NCBI GenBank assembly: GCA_016209015.1
Contig: JACQWY010000037.1
Location: 19,770-83,769, forward strand
Length of the DNA stretch: 64,000 nt
Direction of reading: 5' to 3'
From: Gammaproteobacteria bacterium
GTDB lineage: Bacteria > Pseudomonadota > Gammaproteobacteria > Ga0077536
Shown: positions 2,662 through 60,703 of the stretch, piece after piece
How positions within the stretch are numbered: the first letter of the stretch is position 1
How the letters are laid out: each line of letters opens with the position of its first letter
Translations under genes and position numbers: made by a program
Notes under the pieces: model-generated
Database searches by the model: none
What the model was told of the DNA's origin: nothing
What the model saw: only the letters and a program-made list of their open reading frames with translations

Positions 2662-3837
2662 ATGAGAATCGGGATCGTCGGCGCCGGGGCGATGGGCGCG
2701 TTCGTCGCCAGGGAAATCGTGCGCAGTGCGCCCGGCACGGAGCTCGCGATCGTGGATGCCGACGGCGAACGTGCCGCGCGGCTCGCCGCGCTCTGCGCGC
2801 AGCCCACGAGCGCGGTGCAGGTCTGCGACGCCGCGGACGTCGGCGCCCTGGCGGGCGCTTTGCGCGGCTGCGCCGTGGTCGCGAATGCCGCGCAGTACGA
2901 GATCAATCTCGAAGTCATGCAGGCCGCGCTGCGCGCCGGTGCGCACTACCTCGACCTCGGCGGCATGTTCCACATGACACGGCGCCAGCTCGCGCTCGCG
3001 CCCGAGTTCGAACGCGCCGGCCTCACGGCCATACTCGGGATCGGCGCTGCGCCCGGTCTCAGCAACGTGCTCGCGCGGCATGCCTGCCAGGCGCTCGAGC
3101 GCGTCGAATCGATCGCCGCGAGCTTCGCCGCCGCGGCGCCCGACGCGCCGCCGACCGAAGTCTTCGCGCCGCCCTATTCGATCCGCACCATCATGCAGGA
3201 ATTCTGCGAGGACTCGATGCAGTTCCTGGAGGGTGAAATCACCGCGCAGCCGCCGCTCGCGGGTCGGCGCACGATCGAATTTCCCGCGCCGATCGGGGCC
3301 GTGGACTGCGTCTACACACTCCATTCGGAGCCGGCCACGCTGCCGCTCACGTTCCGCGACAAGGGCGTGCGCGAAGTGACCTGGCGTCTCGGTCTGCCGC
3401 CGGCGCTCGAAGCGCAGATCGCGGCGTTCGCCGCCGCCGGCCTCGGCCGCAGCCGCCCGCTCGCCGTCGCCGGAACCGCGATCGCTCCCGTCGAATTCCT
3501 GGCCGCCTGCATCGACGACAATGCCCGCGGCCAGCGTCGCGACGGCGTCCGTTTCTCGGAGTTCGGCTGCGTGCGCGTCGAAGCGCGGGGCGTGATCGGC
3601 GAACGGGCCACCGAGGTCGCGATCGACTGCCTGTACCGCGACGAAGGCGCACCGCCCGAAGTCGCCGGCGTCATGACCGGCACGCCCGCGGCGATCGCGG
3701 CGCTGATGCTCGCGCGCGGCGAAGCGACGCGCCCCGGCGCTCACGGCGCCGAGGCGGTCGTCCCGAGCGAGTCGATGATCCGCGAGCTCAGGCAGCGCGC
3801 CTTCAGCATCGTGCGCACGGTGCGCACGGCGCTGTGA
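2662..3837 (+). CDS. Saccharopine dehydrogenase-like NAD(P)-dependent oxidoreductase
   Basis: N-terminal GAGAMG Rossmann motif, HYLDLGG, GIGAAPGLSN, HSEPATLP; GGGGAG RBS. Confidence 0.85.
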   Translation: MRIGIVGAGAMGAFVAREIVRSAPGTELAIVDADGERAARLAALCAQPTSAVQVCDAADVGALAGALRGCAVVANAAQYEINLEVMQAALRAGAHYLDLGGMFHMTRRQLALAPEFERAGLTAILGIGAAPGLSNVLARHACQALERVESIAASFAAAAPDAPPTEVFAPPYSIRTIMQEFCEDSMQFLEGEITAQPPLAGRRTIEFPAPIGAVDCVYTLHSEPATLPLTFRDKGVREVTWRLGLPPALEAQIAAFAAAGLGRSRPLAVAGTAIAPVEFLAACIDDNARGQRRDGVRFSEFGCVRVEARGVIGERATEVAIDCLYRDEGAPPEVAGVMTGTPAAIAALMLARGEATRPGAHGAEAVVPSESMIRELRQRAFSIVRTVRTAL

Positions 3838-3842
3838 GCGGC

Positions 3843-4470
3843 GGAGCTGATGCCGACGTTCGCGGCGAGCTGTGCGAGGTCTGCTTGGGGCCTGGAAGCG
3901 GCATGCTCACGCGGATCTCGTAGGTTGCCGTGAAAGAGGTGCTGCCTCTGGAGCCGGAGATCCATCAGAGCCGTCGTCCCGGCGAAGGGACCCTCCCGGC
4001 GGAGGCCGGGACCGGGACCCAGTCGGTCACCCTCGGCACCGCGAGCGAACGCCGGGGATTTCCAGAGCGTGTCCGGTCATCGCAACACCCCGAGGTTCCA
4101 CCACGACGAGGCTGTGGTGCGCTCGCCTCTTTCATCACTCCGGGCGACGGCATGTATTCATGACCGATGGGCTGACGAAGGAAGCCCAACAACAGGCGCA
4201 CGAAGAACACCGGCTTGAAAGAAGTAACGCCGTCTCTGGCTACCGATGCATCGCCGCGTCAGTGAACCTGAAACGTTGGGCTTCCTTCGTCAACCCAACC
4301 TGCGCTTGCTAAGGAGGCGCATCGAACGCGGAGGCTCAAGGCCAGTGTTCGAAAGTCCGTTATCGGAGCCGATGCCGACGTTCGCGGCGAGCAGCGCGAT
4401 GTCTGGTTGCGGCCAGGAAGCGACTTCGTATGCGGATTTTGTAGGTTGGGCTGACGAAGGAAGCCCAACG
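3843..4470. repeat. REP cluster (family 1, GTAGGTTGGGCTGACGAAGGAAGCCCAAC) with a duplicated ~80-bp leader
   Basis: Intact REP at 4441-4469, inverted REP at 4275-4303, split REP at 3920-3927 plus 4168-4190; 3843-3927 and 4365-4448 are imperfect direct repeats. Confidence 0.88.
3928..4167. mobile_element. Non-autonomous 240-bp element (MITE-like) inserted into a REP
   Basis: Separates GTAGGTTG from TGGGCTGACGAAGGAAGCCCAAC with TG repeated at both junctions; second copy at 53381-53545. Confidence 0.75.
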
Positions 4471-4472
4471 CG

Positions 4473-5000
4473 TCACTCACCGTAACTCGGCAGATCTCTG
4501 GCCGCATCGACGCACCAATCGTCTGGAAGCACCCCGCGCGCAACGTACCGATGAAACGTGGAGTAGGGCCACTCGCTGGGTCGTTGGGAGTAGCCATGCT
4601 TGACGGGATTAAAATGGATGTAGTCCACGTGCCGTTCAAGATCGGCATCGTCCCGAATTTGGTGCTCCCAATAGCGCCTCTGCCAAACGCCGCGCTCGCG
4701 CTTGGCGTTGCGCGAATCGGCAATCGGCTCGCCGCTCGCGAGCGCGCGGGAGAAGCAGGATTTGATTAACGACCATCGAACGGGATAGTCCGCGTCATCC
4801 GGCGGGAGCCTCCAAACGGAATGTAGATGATCCGGTAGAACTACCAAGGCAACGATGTCGAAGGGATGATTGGCTTTAACCTTGCGTACCGCTTCGCGCA
4901 AGTTGCCAATGTGGCGAATGAGCGTATCTAGTCGCCGGTCGGCGAGGTTCACGGTGAAGAAGTAAGTCCCGCCCGGGAATACCGAACGTCGATAACGCAT
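4473..5000 (-). mobile_element. REP-associated tyrosine transposase (RAYT/TnpA-REP, IS200/IS605 superfamily HUH Y1)
   Basis: GGTYFFTVNL, LPDHLH (HUH), WQRRYWEHQIRD, YIHFNPVKHG, WPYSTF; flanked by inverted GTAG-REPs. Confidence 0.95.
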
Positions 5001-5070
5001 GCAACGGTCCTTGTGATTTTCGCGTTGGGCTTCCTGCACCAACGAACTAACTTCGCGACACGCCCCGAGA

Positions 5071-5099
5071 GTTGGGCTTCCTTCGTCAGCCCAACCTAC
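5071..5099 (-). repeat. REP family 1, inverted copy upstream of RAYT
   Basis: GTTGGGCTTCCTTCGTCAGCCCAACCTAC is the exact reverse complement of 4441-4469. Confidence 0.92.
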
Positions 5100-5429
5100 G
5101 CTTGCTGAGACCGGGCGAATCACGATGCTTTCCTATGGCGCCAAAGTTTTAAAGAGTCTTCCGTATTGACCAAGCTGCACCCAGGCGCGCTCCTAAATGA
5201 CGAAATGAGTTTCCGGCACTTAGGACGAAATATTCAACGGTCCGCCCCGCAATGTCTCTGTCTCTTGTGGGTCGAAACCGACCTTTTCAAGACTGGCATC
5301 ATAGGTCCGTTTACCGGCCGCCTGCGAACCCAGAATACTCTTAATGCGGGCGTCGCCGCCGACCCTGCCGGTTCTCGATCACGAAGTTGCCGCGAAGACG
5401 ACTACCTTATGAGGCACCACGGCGCACGC

Positions 5430-6059
5430 TCAGGGCGCACCTCCCGACGTACGGCTGCCAGTCGCTTTCGAGCGAAGTGCATTCAGGTAGTCGACGATGT
5501 CCGAGCCGTAAACCCAGACCGGGTCCGCATAGGTCGGAATGCGCATTACAAGGCCGTGCGGTCGAATTGAAACCCCTGGCCCGGACGGTAGCTCGATGAA
5601 CTGCGACGGGATTTCGATCCAGTCTTCCCAGGATTGCGATGACATCAGCATCGCACCCGCAAATCCTTGCATGATTGAGTAAACGGTCCACTTCGAGTGG
5701 CACTTCTCGTACCTCTGGCGTTCAAGTGACCTGGAGATGGAATTGGTGGAAGCAAGTTCGCGGTATTCGCGTTCGGGCTTGGTAAGAAATAAGAGGTAGC
5801 GTCCTCCGAGTTCCAGACCGTCGATTCGCCCGAAATTTACCTCTGTTCCAGCGTCTCCCTTGAACGACTCTTCGATCTTTCCTTTGTATTGCCATCCGCA
5901 TTCGAGGTCCGTCGGATCGATTGGCTCACCGTTCATTACTTGTACAGAGACCACGAGGTCGGCTTGCTCGAATAACCGCTCCATGGGCACACGATCGAGC
6001 CTTGTTCCGTGCGCACAGGTGGCATATACCAGCAGCGCGACTAGGCACGTACGACGCAT
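5430..6059 (-). CDS. Hypothetical exported protein (209 aa)
   Basis: Signal-peptide-like N-terminus, AAGGAGAG RBS, lower GC than the core genes. Confidence 0.75.
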   Translation of the reverse strand: MRRTCLVALLVYATCAHGTRLDRVPMERLFEQADLVVSVQVMNGEPIDPTDLECGWQYKGKIEESFKGDAGTEVNFGRIDGLELGGRYLLFLTKPEREYRELASTNSISRSLERQRYEKCHSKWTVYSIMQGFAGAMLMSSQSWEDWIEIPSQFIELPSGPGVSIRPHGLVMRIPTYADPVWVYGSDIVDYLNALRSKATGSRTSGGAP

Positions 6060-6212
6060 GTCGGCTCTCCTTCTCCGAAAGCGACGCTCGTCGCAACGGG
6101 GGAAATATCAATAAACGTCTCTTGTGGGTCGAGAACGGTATTCCCCGCCAAAGTGTAGGTGGTGCATCGGCCGCATAGCTGCCGTCGGAACCGGCGAAGA
6201 ATTTAACCCGAC

Positions 6213-6596
6213 TCAGATCTCAGATGCCCAAGGAAGCTTGTGGCGGCGGTATACGGCTTGAGTAGGTGGGAACTGGCCGGGATCGTCGAGGCTTCCGATT
6301 GTCACATCGATCCTCCCAGGCTGCATACTTCCAACCCACGAAATCGACGTTCCGCAGGTGCCACAGAAGGATCGCGTGACCCCTGGTGAGGAGACATAGC
6401 AAGCAAGCTCTCCGCGGGTAACGCGGAAATCTTCAATTGGAAGAAAAATCCAAGCGACAGACTGGGCGCCCGTGGCGCGGCGGCAATCGGGGCAATGACA
6501 TACCAGTGCCTTCTCGGGCGCTGCAAGAACCTCGTACCTGATGGCTCCGCACATACAACCGCCTGTTGTAGGAGGCTCAATTCTCCGCTCTGGCAT
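6213..6596 (-). CDS. GFA/CENP-V family Zn-binding protein
   Basis: GGCMCGAIRY, CHCPDCRRATG, RSFCGTCG, GSLDDP motifs. Confidence 0.92.
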   Translation of the reverse strand: MPERRIEPPTTGGCMCGAIRYEVLAAPEKALVCHCPDCRRATGAQSVAWIFLPIEDFRVTRGELACYVSSPGVTRSFCGTCGTSISWVGSMQPGRIDVTIGSLDDPGQFPPTQAVYRRHKLPWASEI

Positions 6597-7067
6597 GCAA
6601 TCTTGACCTCGATCCCAAACAGAGCCCAGAACGACCGCGAGACCCCCAACGCTTTGCACAGGCCGCCTTCGGGTCGAAAACGGTATTCCCTGTTGCAGTC
6701 TAGGCGGTCCGTTCTTCGGCGCATAGCTGCCATCCGACTCTTCCCCATGCACATGCCTGGACCTGATTTGTACGCGCAGTCTCGTAGGTCCGGTGACGAG
6801 CACGGAAGAGCCCAACGTCGTGCGCCGTCACCCGCTGCCGCCCACTTCGTCATTCCCGCGAACCAGGTTCTGCGTCAGCACGGGAGCGCTTTCACGACAC
6901 CTCATGACGCATGTCGTCCTTCGCTCGCCCGACGTTCACCTCTCCCCGAAAATCCACCCCTCCAGGCTCAGCGCCACCGAGTCGGCACCACGATCAGCGC
7001 CATCGGAATGCACGACTTCGCCGTGACTTCCATCAACGCGATGTGTTGTCGCCTTCGGATCGCGAGT

Positions 7068-7098
7068 GTCCGATTACGCCTGCGGCTGATCGGCCTAC
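7068..7098 (-). repeat. REP family 2 (GTAGG-CCGATCAGCCGCAGGCGTAATCGGAC)
   Basis: Near-identical to 48518-48549 and 48694-48724; GTAG head plus hairpin. Confidence 0.8.
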
Positions 7099-7370
7099 AT
7101 TCGACGCCTCGCTCCGTTACGAGTCATAGGATCCATTGACGAAGGAAATGCATCAGCCGACGCCGGGATACGGGCGATCGTGCGGCGAGAGCGGACCGGA
7201 ACAGTCAATGCCGAAATAGATCCCGATATCGCTCATGCCGCAGTGTCCGATGCGGAAAACGGGTGCGCGCGTATCGTGGCCGGAAGAGCAGGCAGCGGTG
7301 GGAATCATGCGGCGCGCCGGCGACGCCGAGCGCGCCGGGCGCGGGCGGGAGGCGGAGCGCGGGGGCCGGA

Positions 7371-7619
7371 TCAGAAACCCATTTCCTGGCGCATCTTGTC
7401 TTCCGCCGCCTTCAATTCCGCTTCCTTGCGCTTCGCGCGGCGCACACCGAGCGCATCGGCACGATCGAGAGACTTCGCGATCGCCGAGAATGCGGCATCC
7501 TGTTCCGGGCCTGCTTCCATCTGCGCGGCGGTCTCGAGATTGGACATGTACTCGGGACGCTTCTTCGCCGGCTGCTTCCAGATCCTGAGTTTCAATTCAT
7601 GAATGACTGTCTTGCTCAT
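7371..7619 (-). CDS. Small basic hypothetical protein (82 aa)
   Basis: MSKTVIHELKLRIWKQ... open frame with host-like codon use. Confidence 0.65.
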   Translation of the reverse strand: MSKTVIHELKLRIWKQPAKKRPEYMSNLETAAQMEAGPEQDAAFSAIAKSLDRADALGVRRAKRKEAELKAAEDKMRQEMGF

Positions 7620-7858
7620 GATGCTTCCAGATTGAATGAGTAAGGGCGCCGTTGCCGGCATTCGAATCAAGTGGGAGAACGCGAGGTCCGATTGGAAACC
7701 GCACGGTCGGTGCGGGTGGGGAACGGGATCTTGATTCGAAGTTTCGGCCCGGGCGGGCAACGAACTGCGCCACCCGGATCCGATTATCCGCTATTTGGCC
7801 CGAATTGGAGAGACCCTTCTGTCAGTCCCTTCGCATTTCGTACGCCGGGCGAATGCGC

Positions 7859-8185
7859 TCACGGATGCGGGCCCCAGGGCGCGGCATTCAGGAGCTTCAC
7901 TTCCTGCGCGACGAGCAGCGGCCGGATCTTCGGCGCGAACTCGCCGGTGAACTCGGCGTTGCCGTAGAGCGCCGCCCAGTGCGCGCGGCGATCCGCGTCG
8001 TCGTCGAACTTCCAGAGATGCACGAGCTGGTTGATCGTGCCGGTGTCTGCGACGAAGTAGCCGACGAGCTTCTTCGCTGCACCGCCGCGCTCCATGATCG
8101 GATAGCCCAGTTCCGAGTAGACCTTGACGACGTCGGCCATCTTGCCGACCTGAACGGTATAGGTGCGTAGCTCGTAGAGCGCCAT
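7859..8185 (-). CDS. NIPSNAP family protein
   Basis: YELRTYT, GYF, GTINQLVHLW, DRRAHWAAL; GGAGGAG RBS. Confidence 0.9.
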   Translation of the reverse strand: MALYELRTYTVQVGKMADVVKVYSELGYPIMERGGAAKKLVGYFVADTGTINQLVHLWKFDDDADRRAHWAALYGNAEFTGEFAPKIRPLLVAQEVKLLNAAPWGPHP

Positions 8186-8240
8186 GGGGATCTCCTCCGT
8201 TACGGCTTGGGTGGGCGAAGCGCCGCGGGTCGCGCGGGTT

Positions 8241-9332
8241 TCAGACGTTGAACCTGAAATGCATGACGTCGCCGTCCTTGACGACGTATTCCTTGCCTTC
8301 GAGCCGGAGCTTGCCGGCATCGCGTGCGCCGGACTCGCCGCCGCAGGCGACGAAGTCCTCGTAAGCGATGACCTCGGCGCGGATGAAGCCGCGCTCGAAG
8401 TCGGTGTGGATGACGCCGGCCGCCTGCGGCGCGGTCGCGTTCGCCGGAATCGTCCAGGCGCGGCATTCCTTCGGACCCGCCGTGAAGTAGGTCTGCAGGC
8501 CGAGCAGCTCGTAGCCGGCGCGGATGACGCGATCGAGACCCGGCTCCTCCAGACCCATCTCCTTCAGGAACTGCTCGCGCTCGTCGTCGGCGAGCGCCGC
8601 GAGCTCGGCTTCGAGCTGCGCGCAGATGACGACGCTCTCCGAGCCCTGAGCGTGCGCGTAATCCGCGACGCGCTTCGTCAATTCGTTGCCTTCGAGATCG
8701 TGCTCGCTCACGTTTGCGATGTAGAGCACGGGCTTCGCCGTCAGCAGCGTGAGCTGCTTCACCGTGTTCCAGCCGAGCTCGTCGAGCTCGAGCGAGCGCA
8801 CGGGCTTCACCTCGTCGAGCGCCTTCTGCACGACGTCGAGTGCGGCGAGCCGGAGCTTGATGTCCTTGTCGCCGGATTTCGCCTGCTTCGCGTAGCGATC
8901 GATGGCGCGCGCGACCGTGTCGAGATCCGCGAGCGCGAGCTCGGTCTCGATCACCTCGATGTCGGAGAGCGGATCGATGCGGCCCGCGACGTGCACGATG
9001 TTCTCGTCCTCGAAGCAGCGCACGACATGCGCGATGGCGTGCGTCTCGCGGATGTGCGCGAGGAACTGGTTGCCGAGACCTTCACCCTTCGAAGCACCGG
9101 CGACGAGCCCCGCGATGTCGACGAACTCCATCGTCGTCGGCACCACCTGTTTGGAGCCGGCGAGCTTCGCGACCTTCTCCTGGCGCGGATCGGGGACCGG
9201 CACCACACCGACGTTCGGATCGATCGTGCAGAACGGATAGTTCTCCGCGGCGATGGCGGCGCGCGTCAGCGCGTTGAAGAGCGAGGACTTGCCGACGTTC
9301 GGCAGTCCGACGATTCCGCATTTGAAACCCAT
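8241..9332 (-). CDS. ychF: Redox-regulated ATPase YchF
   Basis: [28 protein letters not shown]-terminal TGS domain ([15 protein letters not shown]). Confidence 0.98.
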
Positions 9333-9363
9333 GGGGACCTCGGGATGCTGGCCGCGTGCTGCG

Positions 9364-9945
9364 TCAGGACGCGCGGCGGTTCAAAGTGTTCATGACGATG
9401 TCGAATTCGCCGGAAACGATACGGGCGATTTCGGCGAGCGCGCGATCGATCGCGTCGTCGATCGGATCGCGCTCTTCGGCACGCGGCGGCTCGAGCACGT
9501 AGTTCACGACTTCGCGGGCATGGCCCGGATGGCCGATGCCGAGTCTGAGCCGCGCGAATTCCGCGCCTATCTGGCCCGTGATGTCGCGCAGCCCGTTGTG
9601 CCCGCCGTGACCGCCGCCGCGTTTGAGCCGCGCGGTGCCGGGCGGGAGATCGAGATCGTCGTGCACGACGAGGATCGCTGCCGGCTCGATCTTGAGATAG
9701 CGCGAGGCCGCCGCGACCGCCGTGCCGCTGCGGTTCATGAACGTCGACGGCTTCAGCAGATGCAGCGTGCCGCCGGCGAGCTTCGTCTGGCAGGCGTGGC
9801 CGTGGAACTTCGCTTCACGGCGGAACGCGGTGCCGGCCTGCGCGGCGAGACGATCGACGAGCCAGAAGCCGACGTTGTGCCGGGTGCGTTCGTATTCCGC
9901 ACCCGGATTGCCGAGACCGACGATGAGATCGATGCGCTCCGCCAC
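9364..9945 (-). CDS. pth: Peptidyl-tRNA hydrolase
   Basis: [28 protein letters not shown]. Confidence 0.98.
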
Positions 9946-9995
9946 GACTTCCGAGTCGCGTCAGTCGTGGCGGGCGCGCAGGCCTGGTCGGACGA

Positions 9996-10634
9996 TCAGG
10001 CGGCCGGGGCCGGGGTCGCGCCCGGCGCCGGCTCGGCGCCGTCGCCTTCCGCGGCGACGCGCGGGGCGTGGACGGAAACGACCGGCTGCGAGGCGTCGCC
10101 GTGATGGACGAGCACCGCGGCACGGACGCCCGCGGGCATCGCGAGATCGGAGAGGTGCAGCGTGTCGCCGACGTCCATGTTCGCGAGGTCGACCGTGATG
10201 TACTCCGGCAGATCCTTCGGCAGGCAGACGATTTCGACGTCGCTCATCATGTGGCTGATGACGCCGCCGCTCTGCTTCACGCCGATGCAGTTCTCTTCGT
10301 TGATGAAGTGGATCGGCACGCGCATCTCGAGCTCTTCGTTCTCGTTGATGCGCTGGAAGTCCATGTGGATGACGAGCGGACGATAGGGGTGGCGCTGCAG
10401 GTCCTTCAGCACGACGCGCTCGGCACCTGCGGCCATGTTCAGCGTCAGGATGTGCGAATAGAAGGCCTCGTGCTCCGAGCGGCGCAGCACGTCATTGTGA
10501 TCGACCTGGATTGCGGCAGGTTCCTTGTCGCCACCGTAGACGATGGCGGGGATCTTGCCGGCGCGACGCAGGCGGCGGCTCGCACCCTTGCCCTGCAGGT
10601 CTCGCGCTTGGGCGCTGAGTTCGAAAACGTTCAT
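9996..10634 (-). CDS. rplY: 50S ribosomal protein L25/Ctc
   Basis: GKGASRRLRRAGKIPAIVYG, HMDFQR; two-domain Ctc form. Confidence 0.97.
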   Translation of the reverse strand: MNVFELSAQARDLQGKGASRRLRRAGKIPAIVYGGDKEPAAIQVDHNDVLRRSEHEAFYSHILTLNMAAGAERVVLKDLQRHPYRPLVIHMDFQRINENEELEMRVPIHFINEENCIGVKQSGGVISHMMSDVEIVCLPKDLPEYITVDLANMDVGDTLHLSDLAMPAGVRAAVLVHHGDASQPVVSVHAPRVAAEGDGAEPAPGATPAPAA

Positions 10635-10716
10635 TTTGATATCTCCTGTTGATGTCTCTCTGACACGCGCTCCGGACCGGCCGCGACCAGTCGGCCCGTG
10701 ACGCGATTCGGTGTGC

Positions 10717-11676
10717 TCAGTCGATGAACATGGAGCTCAGCGACTGGCCGGAACTGATGCGGTTGATGCTCTCGCCCAAGAGGCCGGCCACGGAGAGCTG
10801 ACGGATGCGCGGACACTGCGCGGCTTCCTCGGTCAGCGGAATCGTGTCGGTGACGACGAGCTCGTCGAGCTCCGATTTCTGGATGTTCTCGAGGGCCTTG
10901 CCCGACAGCACCGGGTGCGTGCAGTACGAGAAGACCTGGCGGGCGCCGTGCTCTTTCAGCGCCTTCGCGGCCTGGCACAGGGTGCCGGCGGTATCGACCA
11001 TGTCGTCGACGAGCACGCAGGTGCGGTCGCGAACGTCGCCGATGATGTTCATGACCTGCGCCTCGTTCGCACGCGGACGGCGCTTGTCGATGATGGCGAG
11101 ATCCGCGTTGTCGAGACGCCGCGCGACCGCGCGGGCGCGGACCACGCCGCCGACGTCCGGCGAGACCACCATCAGGTCCGAATGCTCGCGCTTCCAGATG
11201 TCGCCGAGCAGGACGGGCGAGGCATAGACGTTGTCCATGGGCATGTCGAAGAAGCCCTGGATCTGATCGGCGTGGAGATCGACCGTCAGCACGCGGTCCG
11301 TGCCGACGCTCGCGATCATGTTCGCGACGACCTTCGCCGTGATCGGCACGCGCGCCGAGCGCGGGCGGCGATCCTGGCGGGCGTAGCCGAGATAGGGAAT
11401 GACGGCGGTGATGCTCGCCGCCGAAGCGCGCCGCAGGGCATCGATCAGCACCAGCAGCTCCATCAGGTTGTCGTTCGTCGGCCGGCAGATCGACTGCAGC
11501 ACGAAGACGTCGCGCGCGCGGACGTTCTCGGCGATCTCGATCATGATCTCGCCGTCGCTGAAACGGCCGACGGTGGCCTTGCCGAGCGGGATCTGCAGGT
11601 GCGCGGCGATCGCACGCGACAGCGCGGGATTGGAATTGCCCGCGAACAGCATCATGGCGGAGCGGCTGGAGATCAT
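10717..11676 (-). CDS. prs: Ribose-phosphate pyrophosphokinase
   Basis: [33 protein letters not shown]; start codon approximate. Confidence 0.97.
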
Positions 11677-11828
11677 GCCTGATAACGTCCCAAATCTAAT
11701 GAGCCCACCCACGGGCCGTCGCACACATCACCGCGCGGGACGCTGGTCTGGCCCGGGCCTTCACGGGCCCGGCGGAGCGGCGCCGGCTGCGGTCTTCGTC
11801 TTCTCACCCGGCCGCGAGGCGCAGGGTT

Positions 11829-11903
11829 TGGCTGGGGAGCCAGGATTCGAACCTGGGAATGCCGGGATCAAAACCCGGTGCCTTACCGCTTGGCGACTCC
11901 CCA
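11829..11903 (-). tRNA. tRNA-Gln (TTG)
   Basis: TGGGGAGTCGCCAAGCGGTAAGGCACCGGGT-TTG-ATCCCGGCATTCCCAGGTTCGAATCCTGGCTCCCCAGCCA; usual ispE-prs location. Confidence 0.97.
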
Positions 11904-11918
11904 ATGTATCGTCGCTGT

Positions 11919-12806
11919 TCAGCGTGGCGGCTCACCGTCGCGGGCGCGGTGCTCGGCCTCGAGCCTGTCCAGGAGCGGCGAACGGTTGCGCCGTCCGGCG
12001 GTGAACCACTGCCAGGCCGCGGGGAGCTCCCGTCCGGCGGCCTCGGCGGCCTCCCGGGTCGCGAAACAGGCGAAGACGCAGGCGCCGGTCCCGCTCATCC
12101 GGGTCGGCGCGTAGCGCGACAACCGGTCCAGGGCCTCGCCCACCGCGGGGTAGAGCCGCCGCGTAACGGGCTCGCAGTCATTATGACTCTCGGCCAGCGA
12201 AAAGCGCTGAATTTTGATGGCGGGCGTATTCCGTGTCAAATCAGGGTGTGTGAACACGGCCGCGGTCGGAACCTGGCAGCCCGGGAAGACGACGAGCACC
12301 GGCAACTCTTCCTGGTCGCAGGGCGTCAGCAGTTCCCCGACGCCCTCGGCCCAGGCCGCGACCCCGTGGACGAAGACGGGCACGTCGGCGCCGAGACCGA
12401 GGCCGAGCTGCGCGAGCGCGGCGGTGTCGAGGCCCGTTCCCCACAGCGCGTTCAGGCCGACGAGCACGGTCGCCGCATTCGAGCTGCCGCCGCCGAGGCC
12501 GCCGCCCATGGGCAGGACCTTCGCGACGTCGATGTCGGCACCCCAGCGGGTGCCGGTTGCCTCCTTCAGCACGCGCGCGGCGCGGACCACGAGGTCGCTG
12601 TCGGCGGGCACGCCCGCGAGCTCGTTCAGGCGGCCGATCGTGCCGTCTTGGCGCAGGCGGAAAGAGATTTCGTCCCCGTAATCGAGGAACTGGAACAGCG
12701 TCTGCAGCAGGTGGTAGCCATCCGGACGCCGGCCGACGACATGCAGGAAGAGGTTGATCTTCGCGGGCGCGGGCCAGCCGCGGCTCAGGGTTTCACGGGC
12801 GTCCAT
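11919..12806 (-). CDS. ispE: 4-(CDP)-2-C-methyl-D-erythritol kinase
   Basis: PAPAKINLFL, PMGGGLGGGSSNAA, GADVP, MSGTG. Confidence 0.97.
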   Translation of the reverse strand: MDARETLSRGWPAPAKINLFLHVVGRRPDGYHLLQTLFQFLDYGDEISFRLRQDGTIGRLNELAGVPADSDLVVRAARVLKEATGTRWGADIDVAKVLPMGGGLGGGSSNAATVLVGLNALWGTGLDTAALAQLGLGLGADVPVFVHGVAAWAEGVGELLTPCDQEELPVLVVFPGCQVPTAAVFTHPDLTRNTPAIKIQRFSLAESHNDCEPVTRRLYPAVGEALDRLSRYAPTRMSGTGACVFACFATREAAEAAGRELPAAWQWFTAGRRNRSPLLDRLEAEHRARDGEPPR

Positions 12807-13387
12807 TGGGCGATCACCATCCTCAATTGCAGTTCACCGCGGGTGAGATAGAGCTTCGCCGGCAGGTCGAGGTCCGCGGCCCGGGTGTAATCGAGCACGC
12901 TCACGCGCCAGCCCGATTGCTCCATGTCCCTCAGCCGCCCGGTCGCGTCCGTGTGCAAGCCCTGCACCGGCGCGTCCGGCGCCGGCACGCCGCGCACCCA
13001 GTAACGCGCGCCGGCGACCGGCAGTGCCCAGCGCAAGTGCTCGGCCATGAGCGTCTCGACGTCGCGCGAGACGTAGCGGGCGCCGTCCGGGGTGAGCAGG
13101 GAGACCTGATCGGCGTCGCCGGCGAGTACGGCCGTGCCGCGGCCGAGCGGGGCGATGATGCGGAGCTCGAAGCGCGGGCCGTCCTGGTGCCAGCGGACCT
13201 GGGCGCTGCCGCCCTCGCCGCCGCGCTGGATGGCGATGCGGCCCTCGACGTCGAAGCGTTCGACGGCCGCGACCGCCGTGCGGTGGAGCGTCCAGGCGTC
13301 GGTGCCGGGTGCCGGGCGGTTCGGGATCGTGCCGGGAGTGGCGCAGGCCGCGAGGACCGCGCAGAGCACCAGGGCCGCGCGCCTCAC
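12785..13387 (-). CDS. lolB: Outer-membrane lipoprotein insertase LolB
   Basis: Lipobox LAAC, GRIAIQ, APLGRG, WALPV, EQSGWRV; synteny with ispE; GTG start overlaps upstream stop. Confidence 0.9.
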   Translation of the reverse strand: MRRAALVLCAVLAACATPGTIPNRPAPGTDAWTLHRTAVAAVERFDVEGRIAIQRGGEGGSAQVRWHQDGPRFELRIIAPLGRGTAVLAGDADQVSLLTPDGARYVSRDVETLMAEHLRWALPVAGARYWVRGVPAPDAPVQGLHTDATGRLRDMEQSGWRVSVLDYTRAADLDLPAKLYLTRGELQLRMVIAQWTPVKP

Positions 13388-15201
13388 TGCGCGAGCCGCT
13401 CGATGACCTTGCGTAGCGCCTTGTCGTCGGGCTTGACCTTGAGCGCGGCGTCCCAGATCTCGCGGGCCTCGACCTTCTTGCCGAGCACCCACAGCACCTC
13501 GCCGAGATGGGCGGCGACTTCCGGGTCGTTCTTCTGATCGTGCGCCTTCTGCAGATAGGGCACGGCATCCTCGGCCTTGCCGAGGCGATAGAGCACCCAG
13601 CCCATGCTGTCGAGCACGTAGAAATCGTCGGGCGTGATCGCGAGCGCCTGCTTGATGAAGCCGTAGGCCTCCTCGTAGCGGTTCGTGTGCTCGACGAGGG
13701 AATAGCCGAGCGCATTCAGCGCCTGCGCGTTCTCGGGCTCGCGCTTGATGATCGCGCGCAAATCGGATTCGAGGATGTCCATCTTGCCGAGCTTCTCGGC
13801 GAGCATGGCGCGCGTGTACAGGAGCTCCATGTTGTACGTGCCGTTCAGCGCGGCATCGTAGAGCCCGATCGCCTCCTGGTAGCGCTCGTGATCGGAGAGG
13901 ATCTCCGCTTCCGCGCGCACGACCTGCAGCTTCTGCTCGTCGGTCTCCGGCGCGATGGTCTTGAGGAAGGCGCGGGCCTCGTCGACCTTGTCCTGCGCGG
14001 AGAGGAGGAAGGCGATGCGCACCTGGGCGAAGAAGCGGTTCGAGCCGTCCTTCACCGCCCGGTATTGCGTCAGCGCCGCGCCGAGCTGCTTGCGGGATTC
14101 CGCGATCTGGCCGAGGTAGTAGTGCGCGTCGGCGGCGCGCTCGTCGAACTTCAGCAGACCCTTGAAATCGCGCTCCGCCTCGTCGACGCGGTTCGCCTGC
14201 AGGTTCAGCAGGCCGAGCGCGAACGCGACGTCCGTATTGTCCGGCGCCTTCTTCGCGAGCAGCTCGAACTGCAGCCTTGCCCGTTCGTACTGGTGGGCAT
14301 CGGCGAGCATGCGTGCGTAGAGCATGCGCAGACCGAATTCGTCGGGCGTGCGCGCGAGCGCCTTCTCGAGCCAGGTCACGCCCTCGGCCTGCAGGCCCTG
14401 CTTCTGCAGGAGCGCGACATAGCTCATGGCGATATTCGTATTCACGTCGGCCTTCGCGACGAGCTTGTCCATCGCGGTGCGCGCCTGCTCGAAGTGATCC
14501 GCGCGGATCGCGAGCAGCGCATAGGCGAGCAGCGCATCGGCATCGCCGTCGTGGCGCGCGACGAGCTTCTCCATCACCGCGAGCGCGGTCTGCTTGTCCT
14601 CCTCGCGGCTCAGCAGCGTCGCGACCATGCGCAGGCTGTTGTTGCCCGAGGGGCTCTTGCCCTTGGCGAGCACGACCTCGAGATTCTCGAGCGCAGGGTC
14701 CGCTTCGCCGTGACGGATATACATGGCGGCGAGGATCTGCCGGGCTTCGAGGTTCGTCGGCGCGGCGGCGACCCAGATCTTCGCGGCCTCGAGCGCTGCG
14801 TCGTTGTTGTGGCCGAACACGGCGATCTTCGTCGCGCGTTCCGCGATGCCCGCACTGTGCTGCTGGCGGGCGAGCGAGAGATAGTGTTCGACCGCGACGT
14901 CGAGACGGCCGCGCAGGCCGGCGAACTCGGCGACCATGAGATGGAACATCGGATCGTCGTTCACGTCCACGAGGTCGGCGGGCCCGGGCTTGCGGACCTG
15001 GACGTCGGCCTCGGGCACGTAGAGCTCGCCCTCGGCGGCGGGCGCGGCAGCGGCGGGCGTCCGGGACGCGTCGGCCTGGTCGGGCTTCACGGGCGCCTGC
15101 GCCGCACAGCCGGCGAGCAGCCACAACGCGATCGCGAACGCGCGGCGGGCCGCGCGGGGCTGCGGCGCATGCGCGGTGGGGATCCGGGGCCTGACGTTCA
15201 T
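13384..15201 (-). CDS. TPR-repeat lipoprotein (PA4667/LbcA-like)
   Basis: LAGC lipobox, repeated TPRs, ALNALGYSL, LDSMGWVLYRLG, AAHLGEVLW; lies between hemA and lolB. Confidence 0.9.
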   Translation of the reverse strand: MNVRPRIPTAHAPQPRAARRAFAIALWLLAGCAAQAPVKPDQADASRTPAAAAPAAEGELYVPEADVQVRKPGPADLVDVNDDPMFHLMVAEFAGLRGRLDVAVEHYLSLARQQHSAGIAERATKIAVFGHNNDAALEAAKIWVAAAPTNLEARQILAAMYIRHGEADPALENLEVVLAKGKSPSGNNSLRMVATLLSREEDKQTALAVMEKLVARHDGDADALLAYALLAIRADHFEQARTAMDKLVAKADVNTNIAMSYVALLQKQGLQAEGVTWLEKALARTPDEFGLRMLYARMLADAHQYERARLQFELLAKKAPDNTDVAFALGLLNLQANRVDEAERDFKGLLKFDERAADAHYYLGQIAESRKQLGAALTQYRAVKDGSNRFFAQVRIAFLLSAQDKVDEARAFLKTIAPETDEQKLQVVRAEAEILSDHERYQEAIGLYDAALNGTYNMELLYTRAMLAEKLGKMDILESDLRAIIKREPENAQALNALGYSLVEHTNRYEEAYGFIKQALAITPDDFYVLDSMGWVLYRLGKAEDAVPYLQKAHDQKNDPEVAAHLGEVLWVLGKKVEAREIWDAALKVKPDDKALRKVIERLAQ

Positions 15202-15346
15202 ACTGCCGCTACATCGACGATCATGGTTTAAACTATACCGCAGTTGGATTTCGAACATATCCTGGGTCTTCCACCGCCACTTCCATCGCGCTCGGCGGAC
15301 GAGTCGAAGCCAAGGCTTGCCGCAACCGGGAAAATCACGCAACCGC

Positions 15347-16615
15347 ATGTCCATCGTTATATTTGGTGTGAGCCACAAGACCGCGCCGATCGACGTGCGG
15401 GAGCGCGTTGCGCTGGACGGGGAGCAACTGCCCGAGGCGCTGCGGGCGCTGCTGCAGTACCAGGGGGTGAACGAGGCGCTGATCCTGTCGACCTGCAATC
15501 GCACCGAGCTCTACTGCGCAGTCGACGACAAGCTCAACAGACCGCTCGCCGATTGGTTGGTTCAGTACAAGGCGCTGGAACCCGGAGTCATCGACTCGCA
15601 TTTCTACACGCTCGAGAACGAATACGCCATTCGTCACACCCTGAAAGTCGCGTGCGGTCTCGATTCCATGGTGCTCGGCGAGCCGCAGATCCTCGGCCAG
15701 CTCAAACAGGCCTACGCGGCCGCGGTGGACGGCAAGGCCGCCGGCAAGCAGCTCAACAAGCTCCTGCAGTATTCCTTTTCGGTGGCGAAGAAAGTCCGCA
15801 CCGAAACCGCGGTCGGCGCGACGCCCGTCTCCGTCGCCTACGCGGCGGTGCGCCTCGCGCGCCAGATCCACGGCGATCTCGACGCCAAGACGGCGCTCTT
15901 GATCGGCGCGGGCGAGACGATCGCGCTCGTCGCGACGCATCTCAAATCCCAGCACATCCAGCGCCTGGTCGTCGCGAACCGCACGCTCGCACGCGCCGAG
16001 GAGCTCGCCGCGGAAGTCGGCGGGACCGCCATCGCGCTGGAGGATCTGCCGGCGCACCTCGCGGCCGCCGACATCATCGTCACCTCGACCGCGAGCCGGC
16101 TGCCGATCATCACGAAGGGCGCCGTTGCGAACGCGATCAAGGCGCGGCGCTTCGAGCCCATGTTCATCGTCGATCTCGCCGTGCCGCGCGACGTCGAGCC
16201 CGAGGTCGCGGAGATCGACGACGCGTATCTCTATACCGTCGACGATTTGAACAACGTCATCACCGAGAACATGGAGCTGCGCAGCGCCGCGGCGGCGCAG
16301 GCCGAGGAAATCGTCAACCTTCACACCCAGGGCTACATGGACTGGCTGCAAGCGCAGGACGGCAATACGGTAATAGTCGAGTACCGCCGGCAGGCCGAGA
16401 GCATCAAGGACGAGCTGCTCTCGAAGGCGCAGCGCCGGCTCGCCGCCGGCGAGGATGCCTCGTCCGTCATGACCGCGCTCGCCCACACGCTCGTCAACAA
16501 GCTCATCCACCATCCGACTGCGAAGATCCGCGAGGCGACCGTCGAAGGCCGCAGCGATCTCGTCGCCGTCGCCCGCGAGCTCTTCGCGCTGAACGAGAAA
16601 ACCCTTCCCGAATGA
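15347..16615 (+). CDS. hemA: Glutamyl-tRNA reductase
   Basis: [33 protein letters not shown]. Confidence 0.98.
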
Positions 16616-17697
16616 AGGACTCGCTCGCCCGCAAGCTCCGCGGCCTGCTCGACCGCCGCGACGAGCTCGATGCCCTGCTCGCCTCGCCGGACGTGATCAA
16701 CCAGCAGGAGCGCTATCGCAGCTACGCGCGCGAACGCGCCGAGATCGATCCGGTCGTGCAGTGCTATCGCGAGTACCTGCGCACCGAGGAAGGTCTCGCG
16801 AACGCCGAGGCGATGCTCGCCGAGGACGATGCCGGGATGCGCGCACTCGCCCAGGACGAGATCGGCGCGGCGAAGGCCAGGCTCGAGACGCTCGAGCTCG
16901 ACATCAACCGGCTGCTCATCCCGAAGGACCCCGCCGACGACGCGAACATCTTCCTCGAGGTGCGCGCGGGTACGGGCGGCGACGAGGCCGCGATCTTCGC
17001 GGGTGATCTCCTGCGCATGTACCTGAAGTACGCCGAGCGGCGCGGCTGGCAGGTCGAGATCATCAGCTCGAACCAGGGCGAGCACGGCGGCTACAAAGAA
17101 GTGATCGCGCGCGTCGTCGGCCAGGGCGCGTACTCGAGCCTCAAATTCGAATCGGGCGCGCACCGCGTGCAGCGCGTGCCGGCGACGGACTCACAGGGCC
17201 GCATCCACACCTCGGCGTGCACGGTCGCGATCCTGCCCGAGCTCGACGAGGTCACCGACATCCAGATCAATCCGGCGGATCTGAAGGTGGACACGTATCG
17301 CGCGTCCGGCGCAGGCGGTCAGCACGTCAACAAGACGGACTCGGCAATCCGCATCACCCACCTGCCGACCGGCGTCGTCGTCGAATGCCAGGACGAGCGC
17401 TCGCAGCACAAGAACCGGTCGCGCGCGATGAGCCTCCTGAAAGCGCGCCTGCTGCAGAGCGAGCGCGATCGCCAGACCGCGGAGCAGGCGCAGACGCGCC
17501 GCAACCTCGTCGGCAGCGGCGATCGCTCGGAGCGCATCCGCACCTACAACTATCCGCAGGGCCGCGTCACGGATCACCGCATCAACCTCACGCTCTACAA
17601 GCTCGAGGACGTGCTCGAAGGCGGGCTCGAGGCGGTGATCGATCCGCTCGTGCAGGAGCACCAGGCGGATCTGATGGCGCAGCTCGGCGACGTCTGA
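16612..17697 (+). CDS. prfA: Peptide chain release factor 1
   Basis: GTGGDEA, PAT tripeptide, [17 protein letters not shown]. Confidence 0.98.
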
Positions 17698-17704
17698 GGC
17701 GCCG

Positions 17705-18541
17705 GTGCCGACGCGCGGCGAGCTCGTGCGCTGGGGCGGCGGCCAGCTCGGCGCCAGCGACACGCCGCGCCTCGACGCCGAGCTGCTGCTCATGGCCGTG
17801 CTCGGCCTCGATCGCAGCGCGCTCTTCCGTGACGCCGACCGCCTCGTCGCCGCGGCGGATGACGCGCGCTATCGCGGGCTCGTCGCGGCGCGGGCCGAAG
17901 GCCGGCCGGTCGCGCAACTGCTCGGCGTGCGGGAATTCTGGTCGCTCGAATTCGAGGTCGACGAACACTGCCTCGTCCCGCGGCCCGAGACGGAGCTGCT
18001 CGTCGAGCGCGCACTCGCGGCCATCCCGTCGGGGGCGGCCGTCCGGATCGCGGATCTCGGCACCGGCAGCGGCGCCATCGCGGTCGCCATCGCCCGCGAA
18101 CGCCCGCAGTCTCGCGTCGTCGCCGTCGACGCGAGCCCGGCGGCACTCGCGGTCGCCGCCCGCAACGCCGCCCGGCTCGCCCCGGGGCGGGTCGCGCTCG
18201 TCCGCGGCGACTGGCTCGCCGCGTTCGCGCCGGGCAGCTTCGAGGTCATCGTGTCGAACCCGCCCTACGTGGCCGCCGACGATCCCTTGCTCACGACGAC
18301 CGAAATCCGCTTCGAGCCGCGGGCAGCGCTCGCCGCCGGCCCCGACGGCCTCAGCGATCTCGGCGCGCTCGCGCGGCAGGCGGCGGCGGCGCTCGTCGCG
18401 GGCGGCCGCGTCTTCCTGGAGCACGGCACGACGCAGGGACCGGCCGTGCGGGCACTGCTCACCGCCGCGCGCTTCGCGGACATCGCGACCGCGCGCGATC
18501 TCGCCGGCCACGAGCGCGTGACCTCCGGCCGGCGGCCCTGA
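17705..18541 (+). CDS. prmC: Release factor glutamine methyltransferase
   Basis: PRPETE, DLGTGSGAI, SNPPY. Confidence 0.96.
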   Translation: MPTRGELVRWGGGQLGASDTPRLDAELLLMAVLGLDRSALFRDADRLVAAADDARYRGLVAARAEGRPVAQLLGVREFWSLEFEVDEHCLVPRPETELLVERALAAIPSGAAVRIADLGTGSGAIAVAIARERPQSRVVAVDASPAALAVAARNAARLAPGRVALVRGDWLAAFAPGSFEVIVSNPPYVAADDPLLTTTEIRFEPRAALAAGPDGLSDLGALARQAAAALVAGGRVFLEHGTTQGPAVRALLTAARFADIATARDLAGHERVTSGRRP

Positions 18542-60171: not shown

Positions 60172-60492
60172 TCACAGCGCCGACGGCCCGTTCGTGTAGC
60201 ACTTCTTCGGACAGATCTTCGAGCAGGCTTCGCAACCGACGCAGTTCTCGGGATGCGCGATCGTCATGACCTTCTTTTCGTATTCCTCGTCGTCGTCGTC
60301 GTCTTCGTCACCGAGCACGACGGGAATGAAGTTGCCGTCCTCGTCGACGCCCGCCATCTGCAGGACGTCGCGGCCGCAGACCCGATAGCAACGGCCGCAG
60401 CCGATGCATTTCGTCTGATCGATTTGCTGTGCGAACTTCGGGGTCCAGATCTCACCGCTCGGCAGAGTGACCGTGAATACCGCTGCGTCCAT
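60172..60492 (-). CDS. fdxB: nif-specific ferredoxin III
   Basis: WTPKF, CIGCGRCYRVC, acidic insert, CVGCEACSKIC. Confidence 0.93.
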   Translation of the reverse strand: MDAAVFTVTLPSGEIWTPKFAQQIDQTKCIGCGRCYRVCGRDVLQMAGVDEDGNFIPVVLGDEDDDDDEEYEKKVMTIAHPENCVGCEACSKICPKKCYTNGPSAL

Positions 60493-60508
60493 TCGTTCTC
60501 TCCTCGTC

Positions 60509-60703
60509 TCAGGATGCGGCCGCGAGCGCTTTGCGCGCGGCGTCGAGTTTCTGGTAGGCCTCGAAGGTCTTCGCCGCGATCTCGGGGATGCGCTCCCACT
60601 GCCGGGGCAGCTCCTCGGAGAGATCGTGCAGGTCCATCTTGAGCGTGGTGGCCTGGGCGTTCAGCTTCTTCACTTCCGCTTTGAGCGCTTCGATGTCGGC
60701 CAT
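60509..60703 (-). CDS. CCE_0567/DUF683 (Rop-like) nif-associated protein
   Basis: VKKLNAQATTLKMDLHDLSEELP..W. Confidence 0.9.
   Translation of the reverse strand: MADIEALKAEVKKLNAQATTLKMDLHDLSEELPRQWERIPEIAAKTFEAYQKLDAARKALAAAS

Follow-up and report, generated by a model that had tools for sequence, protein, structure and literature searches.

A repeated unit that is not attC brackets small genes beside a REP-RAYT module: candidate junctions of cassette-like gene modules in a groundwater genome

The window, a stretch of 64,000 nucleotides (C13:19770-83769; labels with C stand for contigs of a 65-contig genome of 5.7 Mb), holds near its beginning a short array in which two small genes are separated and flanked by three copies, A, B and C, of a repeated non-coding unit. 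All results given here come from a single metagenome-assembled genome from groundwater, which has no close relatives and for which there is no genome of the same genus to compare. On the minus strand the order is unit C, a gene of the GFA family, unit B, the gene of a 209-aa protein and unit A, and then a gene of a REP-associated tyrosine transposase (RAYT) between two REP (repetitive extragenic palindromic) sequences. The components of the array are as follows, the scores of the units being those of R1, a covariance model based on sequence only.

6642-6746, minus strand (C13:26411-26515): unit C, type 2, 60.8 bits
6213-6596, minus strand: GFA-family gene between units C and B (PF04828, E 1.1e-25)
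6101-6215, minus strand (C13:25870-25984): unit B, with a type-2 body and an A-like tail, 45.5 bits
5430-6059, minus strand: orphan gene (open reading frame, ORF) between units B and A, encoding the 209-aa protein with a signal-peptide-like N-terminus
5247-5366, minus strand (C13:25016-25135): unit A, type 1, 68 bits

Each unit ends with a short box and a tail, described below. Unit C lies 65 nt upstream of the GFA start codon, with its box (GGGTCGA on the plus strand) at 6671-6677 and its tail at 6662-6670; unit B extends from the GFA stop codon to 57 nt ahead of the start codon of the 209-aa gene (box and tail at 6117-6132); unit A is located 63 nt past the stop codon of the latter gene and roughly 150 nt from the REP in front of the RAYT gene (box and tail at 5260-5275). 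The likely start of the GFA gene is the ATG at 6596, so that the protein comprises 127 aa from M74 of a longer ORF. The 209-aa protein belongs to no family in Pfam or NCBIfam and has just one other homologue cluster, with 50% identity, among 5.8 billion protein clusters. Compared directly, B and C are 79% identical over 38 nt and 89% over 18 nt, a left block of 21 nt is common to all three units, its first 16 nt being identical in A and B, and, with B as the query, C was the sole other significant match in the whole genome (E 6.4e-5).

The surroundings of the array comprise the following features.

4473-5000, minus strand: RAYT gene, apparently intact (NF047646, 196.9 bits at a cut-off of 80; PF01797), downstream of the array and in the same orientation
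5071-5099, no strand: REP copy upstream of the RAYT gene, a 29-nt inverted repeat 100% complementary to its partner at 4441-4469
4168-4190 and 4275-4297: further REP copies
7064-7089, no strand: copy of another dispersed REP-like repeat, a 26-mer some 320 nt upstream of unit C, with 44 genome copies at no more than 3 mismatches
3840-8200, no strand: lower-GC, repeat-rich islet (GC, guanine-plus-cytosine fraction, 0.53-0.64) comprising REPs, RAYT gene and array as well as some 600 nt of non-coding DNA

The array thus sits between the repeat at 7064-7089 and the REP-RAYT module. Across 4600-6800 GC is 0.53-0.59, as against 0.70-0.75 in the initial 3.8 kb of the window and 0.65-0.72 beyond about 8.2 kb, the genome as a whole having 0.674. 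In the approximately 600 nt upstream of unit C (6760-7370) no convincing gene was seen; this DNA contains REP remnants at 6806-6819 and 7137-7163, and its stretch 6782-6797 resembles the mid-unit stretch 5299-5314 (81%). A preliminary description, made from the window alone, had recognised the three units bracketing the two co-oriented genes in a low-GC block and the RAYT neighbour between REP copies. All of this holds: the former is borne out by the sequence, the repeat comparison and the leave-one-out tests given below, the latter by the NF047646 match and the 29-nt inverted REPs. The length of the repeated unit, then given as about 62 bp, has to be roughly doubled, as the conserved similarity extends over about 115-135 nt.

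The units form a family of 11 copies at seven loci of this genome. With a profile made from A-C only, three full-length but marginal matches appeared elsewhere (E 0.066-0.26), and these six sequences together with three weaker matches sharing the motifs (E 3.6-18) made up a nine-seed profile, which recruited two non-seed copies, C60 and C41a, at E 1.7e-7 and 2e-6 (iterated nhmmer). In the third round the 11 copies had E of 2e-14 or lower and the next match had E 0.1. When the copies were left out one by one, 11 of 11 were recovered, each ranking 11th, with E ranging from 1.5e-12 to 0.002 (A, 7.6e-11; C, 1.2e-10; B, the weakest member, 0.002), and the best non-family match had E of at least 0.033. 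The copies outside the window array, as delimited by R1, are listed here.

C13:92727-92857: unit C13b
C13:94767-94871: unit C13c
C41:26880-27002: unit C41a
C41:27684-27805: unit C41b
C28:57974-58091: unit C28
C48:100834-100932: unit C48
C39:66369-66496: unit C39
C60:6764-6889: unit C60
C48:102273-102305: partial copy (E 0.06-0.17)

Three further marginal copies are found on C61, C18 and C44. The pairwise identity of the units is 36-74%, and they fall into type 1 (A, C13c, C41a, C48, C39 and C60) and type 2 (B, C, C41b and C13b), with C28 being intermediate. Type 2 precedes type 1 in all three loci with several units, an order with a chance of 1 in 8, which for three loci is an observation only.

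A unit is about 125 nt long, non-palindromic and orientation-specific, the copies being aligned in the direction of the flanking genes. It starts with a GC-rich stretch, followed by GGAAnnTTCC and by GAGG-GTCGC; next is a direct pair of ACGGmC half-sites spaced 11 bp apart, the latter of them being a nearly invariant AACGGAC; then a hexamer, TATnAT in type 1 or TAGACT in type 2, and a G..GAAAAGG.CG stretch; and finally, about 30 bp past the half-sites, the TCGACCC box with a semi-conserved 9-nt tail, RMAGCGGnC. All 11 copies keep the box, nine of them as exact TCGACCC and two as xxGACCC. Of the 85 core columns, 18 are conserved in 10 or more of the 11 copies, and these conserved positions cluster (permutation p 0.008). 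Such clustering, despite an overall identity of only 36-74%, argues for functional blocks rather than for neutral decay. The copies differ by indels of 2, 4 and 11 nt. No conserved fold was found: the RNAalifold consensus of the 11 units has -0.9 kcal/mol and 3 pairs. As single-stranded DNA, A, B and C gave fold z-scores of -1.6/-1.2, +0.8/+0.4 and -2.6/-2.0, respectively, with structures that differ from each other and with B folding no better than its shuffles.

Among bacterial systems of single-gene capture, integrons are the best-known general one; they are characterised by the folded attC site, whose terminal boxes R'' and R' read RYYYAAC ... GTTRRRY. The genome does contain an integron: a bona fide integrase gene at C57:109468-110412 (TIGR02249, 479.6 bits at a cut-off of 265), on a separate contig and linked to none of the units, belongs to a complete chromosomal integron (L009, C57:92000-111500) with intI at 17400-18434 on the plus strand, an array at about 9015-17290 with GC of 54-64%, an attI-like junction near 17290 and at least nine attC sites according to the model. 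The earlier remark that no integrase was seen, made from the window, does not extend to the genome. Small co-oriented genes between repeats also resemble a CALIN, a cluster of attC sites lacking integrase as defined in PMC4889954. One could therefore think of unusual attC sites forming a CALIN that is served in trans by the IntI of C57. However, there is no pair of R boxes on either strand of A, B, C and their flanks, although the genome's own attC sites show GCCTAAC ... GTTAGGC; neither the folds of A-C nor the consensus of the 11 units contain an imperfect palindrome folding as a hairpin; and a covariance model of five own attC sites (R2), which finds four more of them at 15.1-27.2 bits, gives nothing with E below 1 at any of the 11 units, just as the unit model does not exceed 7.9 bits in the true integron array. 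The units are not attC, as had been stated from the beginning, and the CALIN explanation is extremely improbable.

Several other classes were considered and rejected. A structured RNA or riboswitch finds no counterpart in Rfam (no relevant match at E of 1 or lower in window 3500-8000, nor at 0.1 or lower in the six other loci), and there is no consensus fold. As to coding capacity, four to six copies show a minus-strand K-R-T-Y ... (F/I)-D-P pattern, which has no start codon, is interrupted by in-frame stops in C, C13b and C28 and is crossed by the indels of 2, 4 and 11 nt. REP or REPIN elements flank the RAYT gene in inverted orientation, while the units, about 125 nt long and unstructured, occur only upstream of it. 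For the ends of a miniature inverted-repeat transposable element (MITE) or an insertion sequence (IS), no inverted partner copy appeared in the profile search, and the copies, 36-74% identical and with fuzzy ends, are not near-identical; blast of the whole array and of unit C39 against plasmids, able to show ends of IS elements or transposons, gave either no significant match or chance matches inside genes. A genome-wide operator of the form GTCCG-N15-CGGAC was discarded because spacing N15 is not enriched. By the way, the palindromes GTCCG-N16/17/18-CGGAC number 43, 42 and 60 in the genome against about 12-25 at other spacings and may represent another repeat family or operator set.

Outside the window the units likewise stand as direct repeats around genes; with the window array included, one or two genes are bracketed in this manner at three or four loci. 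At C41 the order is unit b, a gene of a 163-aa membrane protein and unit a, followed by a 167-aa ORF; at C48 a full unit is followed by a HAF-repeat protein gene and the partial unit; at 92-95 kb of C13 two genes lie between C13b and C13c, after which comes a REP-RAYT2-REP block. The bracketing of single genes elsewhere, anticipated from the window, is therefore seen at C41 and, with a partial second copy, at C48. No paralogy was detected among the cargo proteins. In five loci the most upstream unit marks the edge of lower-GC DNA; a search for core-only sites at the far edges of the low-GC segments yielded one candidate, C39:68727, at chance level.

RAYT is the sole protein family that recurs among the neighbourhoods of the unit loci, and five of the seven loci are situated within 3 kb of a REP, as compared to 5.6% of the genome (binomial P 1e-5; there are 88 REP-like copies genome-wide). 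Both copies of the RAYT clade concerned are preceded by a type-1 unit, which supports the position beside the RAYT pointed out in the preliminary description. The second copy, RAYT2, encodes a protein 88% identical to that of the window RAYT and is frameshifted; its REP-RAYT-REP block occupies L014:5966-6640 (C13:94966-95639), outside the window, and the frame is broken after approximately residue 120. The two REP-RAYT-REP blocks are 89% identical over 675 nt, whereas units A and C13c share only 57% and no relationship exists between the two unit-REP spacers; the two unit-RAYT associations are therefore not one duplicated block. At the C39 locus a REP lies about 60 nt downstream of the unit; beyond them, at L018:3530-4099 (C39:66529-67098), there is an ORF with only the C-terminal part of a HlyD-family protein, apparently a truncated gene.

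Eight of the 11 units have a co-oriented gene beginning 35-270 nt downstream. This could be expected if the units were a propagated regulatory or intergenic module, i.e., a putative mobile promoter or operator or an extra-REP mosaic motif of the kind of BIME (bacterial interspersed mosaic element) or ERIC (enterobacterial repetitive intergenic consensus), whose blocks would bind a regulator or a nucleoid protein, the look of an array arising from successive small accessory genes of an islet each carrying or acquiring a copy, and the unit playing no part in recombination. Both the direct half-sites at an 11-bp distance and the GGAAnnTTCC palindrome have the typical layout of protein-binding sites, the TATnAT hexamer has a weak -35 element at 18-19 nt in four of the 11 units under a lenient scan, and the units co-localise with REPs and other dispersed repeats. 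Moreover, cases in which unrelated genes of one genome are preceded by homologous non-coding DNA have already been described (PMC3575422). On the other hand, a consensus promoter scan found no sites in window 4900-7000 and seven of the 11 units fail even the lenient one, the hexamer of type 1 is shifted by 3 nt relative to that of type 2, the distance to the start codon varies over the whole range of 35-270 nt, the genes on either side of C13b are convergent, and no clear gene follows C60. The cargo proteins are indeed unrelated, but the identity of the units, 36-74%, is far under the level set for putative mobile promoters, which are found ahead of non-paralogous genes and share at least 80% over 50 nt or more (PMC3575422); by that definition the units do not belong to them. 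Besides, a regulatory module alone explains neither the direct-repeat bracketing of single genes nor the composition of unit B. We consider such a module possible, if somewhat doubtful on its own; it is nearly as good an explanation as the junction-site one presented next, and both can hold together.

The composition of unit B is as follows. B equals C over the 12 nt to the left of the box and then, after one mismatch, over the 7-nt box, and it equals A over the box and the 9 nt to the right (16 nt in total). In the body B matches C at 49 of 73 positions and A at 31 of 73, while in the 16 columns after the box it matches A at 10 and C at 6. Judging by this alignment, B reads as a hybrid of a C-like body and an A-like tail, with the switch located inside the invariant TCGACCC/GGGTCGA box, and the pattern of half-site exchange at GGGTCG, noticed at the outset, is thereby upheld. 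Furthermore, when all 55 unit pairs are compared, A/B (16 nt) and C13b/C13c (15 nt) have the longest exact runs; both are neighbours of different subtype, and in both cases the run covers box and tail. With 4 neighbour pairs among 55, neighbours would take both of the first two places with a probability of about 0.004, a figure computed post hoc.

Because of the blocky conservation, the direct-repeat bracketing at several loci, the hybrid B and the lower-GC setting, we tentatively suppose, with a probability of roughly 0.38, that the units are junction sites of small cassette-like gene modules. DNA segments, each consisting of one unit and one or two genes, would be joined in direct tandem by conservative unit-unit recombination, and an exchange in or beside the TCGACCC box would give rise both to hybrids like B and to an identical box and tail in adjacent units. 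The sites would act in double-stranded form, with repeated protein-binding half-sites like those of attI and phage att, and not as folded attC hairpins; the enzyme would act in trans. While the existence of the family, the make-up of the units and their arrays, their linkage to REPs and one RAYT clade and their distinctness from attC are observations, recombination, its crossover point, the mobility of the segments and the binding of proteins are what we infer. A far-reaching variant, which we deem unlikely, would be an integron-independent cassette system with attI-like double-strand sites (two ACGGmC half-sites plus a 7-bp TCGACCC overlap) and with arrays growing beside REP-RAYT, catalysed by an orphan tyrosine recombinase or even by the neighbouring domesticated HUH transposase.

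A number of facts weigh against junction sites. The genes between C13b and C13c are on the opposite strand and of host-like composition. Three or four of the units are single, with no second box and tail within 8 kb beyond chance. The non-neighbour pair C48/C60 also shares 15 nt, and C41a and C41b share only 6 nt; the tail identity of the neighbour pairs is 9, 4, 6 and 5 of 9 against a mean of 4.4 in the other pairs, a modest difference (permutation p only 0.065). The family was found nowhere else, although a shared pool of cassettes would be expected to be wider. Nor did the source community provide rearranged forms. The 1,771-base stretch 5130-6900 is present in four groundwater-metagenome runs of one study, with no RNA run among those listed; the contigs of the four match the window wherever the array is covered, one of them spanning 4453-8288 without difference; no C/B or B/A hybrid joint, excision junction or variant gene content was found in these contigs, where rare forms would be hidden. 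This includes the C/B junction of an excised GFA circle, which had been predicted. Contigs of three runs seem to contain the joints 4331->7064 and 4331->7057, whose shorter side comprises just 21 letters and whose right side is the 44-copy repeat; this repeat explains them, and they were not used as evidence. Of the initial proposal of single-gene cassettes captured by site-specific recombination, the non-attC brackets, their recurrence around single genes at other loci, the hybrid B and the place next to the RAYT remain; a recombination event, a recombinase and variation of gene content between units were not observed.

In addition, family matches across the whole genome linked no recombinase to the units. 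There is no serine recombinase in the genome. None of the 14 tyrosine-recombinase matches is beside a unit, except for a 72-residue fragment (C28:56540-56755) 1.3 kb from the C28 unit; the remaining matches are one to rve, none to DDE_Tnp_1 and five to Y1 transposases, and the bracketed inserts harbour no recombinase genes.

As for the neighbouring RAYT, an HUH enzyme of the Y1 type proposed earlier as a possible catalyst, it would have to mobilise the modules by single-strand transposition, with the units serving as ends or targets. This RAYT clade has only two copies, and two of the three arrays end approximately 100-150 nt upstream of them; the C39 unit has a REP about 60 nt downstream, and in six of the 11 units the box forms, by reading, the 3' arm of a short GGnCG-N4-CGACC hairpin. 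However, deletions remove the loop of this hairpin in four copies, the consensus fold is negligible (-0.9 kcal/mol) and B, as said above, folds no better than shuffled sequences, so that the units lack a conserved hairpin and the HUH enzyme as catalyst finds no support. RAYTs recognise REP hairpins, and the REPs of this genome are unrelated to the unit; moreover, no unit was found beside 29 loci with RAYT homologues in other genomes (best E 0.61). Movement by the RAYT therefore appears quite improbable.

The divergence of the copies (36-74% identity, indels of 2, 4 and 11 nt), the partial copy at C48:102273-102305, the marginal ones on C61, C18 and C44 and the lack of a partner enzyme in the genome search would fit decaying relics with no present function, for example one end of an extinct family of mobile elements or old local duplications, whose clustering would mirror the accumulation of acquired DNA rich in repeats; REPs, a 140-nt repeat and further families of short repeats are likewise found at these loci. 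Uniform decay, however, predicts neither conserved columns gathered in blocks (p 0.008) nor a box kept in all 11 copies, and the lower-GC setting suggests DNA too young for such divergence in place. We regard relics as unlikely. The units are far more diverged than the RAYT duplicates and yet lie in compositionally atypical DNA; therefore, either the copies diverged before arrival or selection keeps the blocks only, one of which is probably the case. Foreign origin itself is not proven, since relaxed selection could also lower GC. The 140-nt repeat, with copies 98-100% identical, occurs at C48:100048-100187, at C28:55579-55718 and 60462-60601 and at the start of C60. On C28 the two copies are inverted, 4.7 kb apart, and enclose the C28 unit and the tyrosine-recombinase fragment. 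One copy of the repeat is located at a contig end. Possibly this repeat represents an IS or MITE end.

Among known systems, integron cassettes and phage-type att junctions seem to be the closest to the supposed junction sites in the way of working. The two direct repeats of the unit followed by a 3' crossover box presumably recall the architecture of attI. Like integron arrays, the window locus has small, mostly orphan, co-oriented genes between repeated sites, and neighbouring sites look chimeric, which is also the outcome of cassette integration according to PMC4889954; unlike them, the units have no R boxes, hairpin or match to an attC model, are dispersed over seven loci and are not adjacent to intI. 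With the att sites of phages and islands undergoing tandem accretion they share direct repeats around inserts, an identical core of 15-16 nt in two neighbouring pairs whose arms otherwise differ, and an arm with repeated half-sites, but no integrase is found in or beside the inserts, which measure 0.5-2 kb and occupy several unrelated sites and not one attB. Putative mobile promoters are likewise homologous non-coding DNA before unrelated genes (PMC3575422), whereas the units are more diverged, have weak promoter signals and are arranged as brackets around genes. The units resemble REPs and REPINs (PMC3116915, PMC3337134) in being extragenic, lineage-restricted and close to REPs and RAYT genes; they differ in being non-palindromic, in number (11 copies versus 88 REPs) and in position, on one side of the RAYT gene and 60-190 nt from a REP. 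Finally, the Xer-dependent pdif/dif modules of Acinetobacter plasmids (PMC6449649, PMC12907356) are also gene modules bounded by short sites and served by a host enzyme in trans; in our units, no 28-bp dyad of the XerC-spacer-XerD type was seen by reading, and the sites are about 125 nt long, direct and not alternating, and chromosomal.

The distribution of the family appears to be restricted to this genome, with the reservation that the searches overlook diverged copies. The further copies that were expected from a profile of A-C exist here, 11 at seven loci, and were not detected in other genomes: R1 gave no matches in 80 other genomes of the order and 150 of the class under the stricter filters of Infernal. 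The 29 RAYT-homologue loci mentioned above include two, L038 and L040, from unpublished genomes, and the negative result does not depend on either. An exact 20-mer of the left half of B and C occurs at three loci among 185,579 species genomes, none with the right half, because of which these loci are attributed to chance. A gapped 20-base pattern, matching six of the 11 units and no place in the reversed genome, found 47 loci in metagenome contigs, all with no more than 28.8 bits by R1 against 45-76 bits for true members; they are considered chance matches, because these scores are low and are partly forced by the pattern. DNA synteny in 40 relatives, examined for the array and the C13b locus, gave nothing usable, and in the literature, searched by concept and not by sequence, no account of such a unit was found.

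If the units are indeed a second sequence-defined family of junctions around orphan genes, located by a RAYT, they would point to another route for stacking accessory genes and could hint at a function for RAYT/REP neighbourhoods; were an HUH transposase the catalyst, RAYTs would gain a role in gene capture. If they are a regulatory module, they would be a clean example of homologous non-coding DNA before unrelated genes.

One more feature concerns the REPs on the far side of the RAYT gene. A segment of about 60-86 nt is duplicated at 3842-3927 and 4364-4448 of the window (82-88% identity), with a REP after each copy, and a third, weaker copy of parts of it lies near 7034-7163, so that the REPs here appear to travel with a flanking module.

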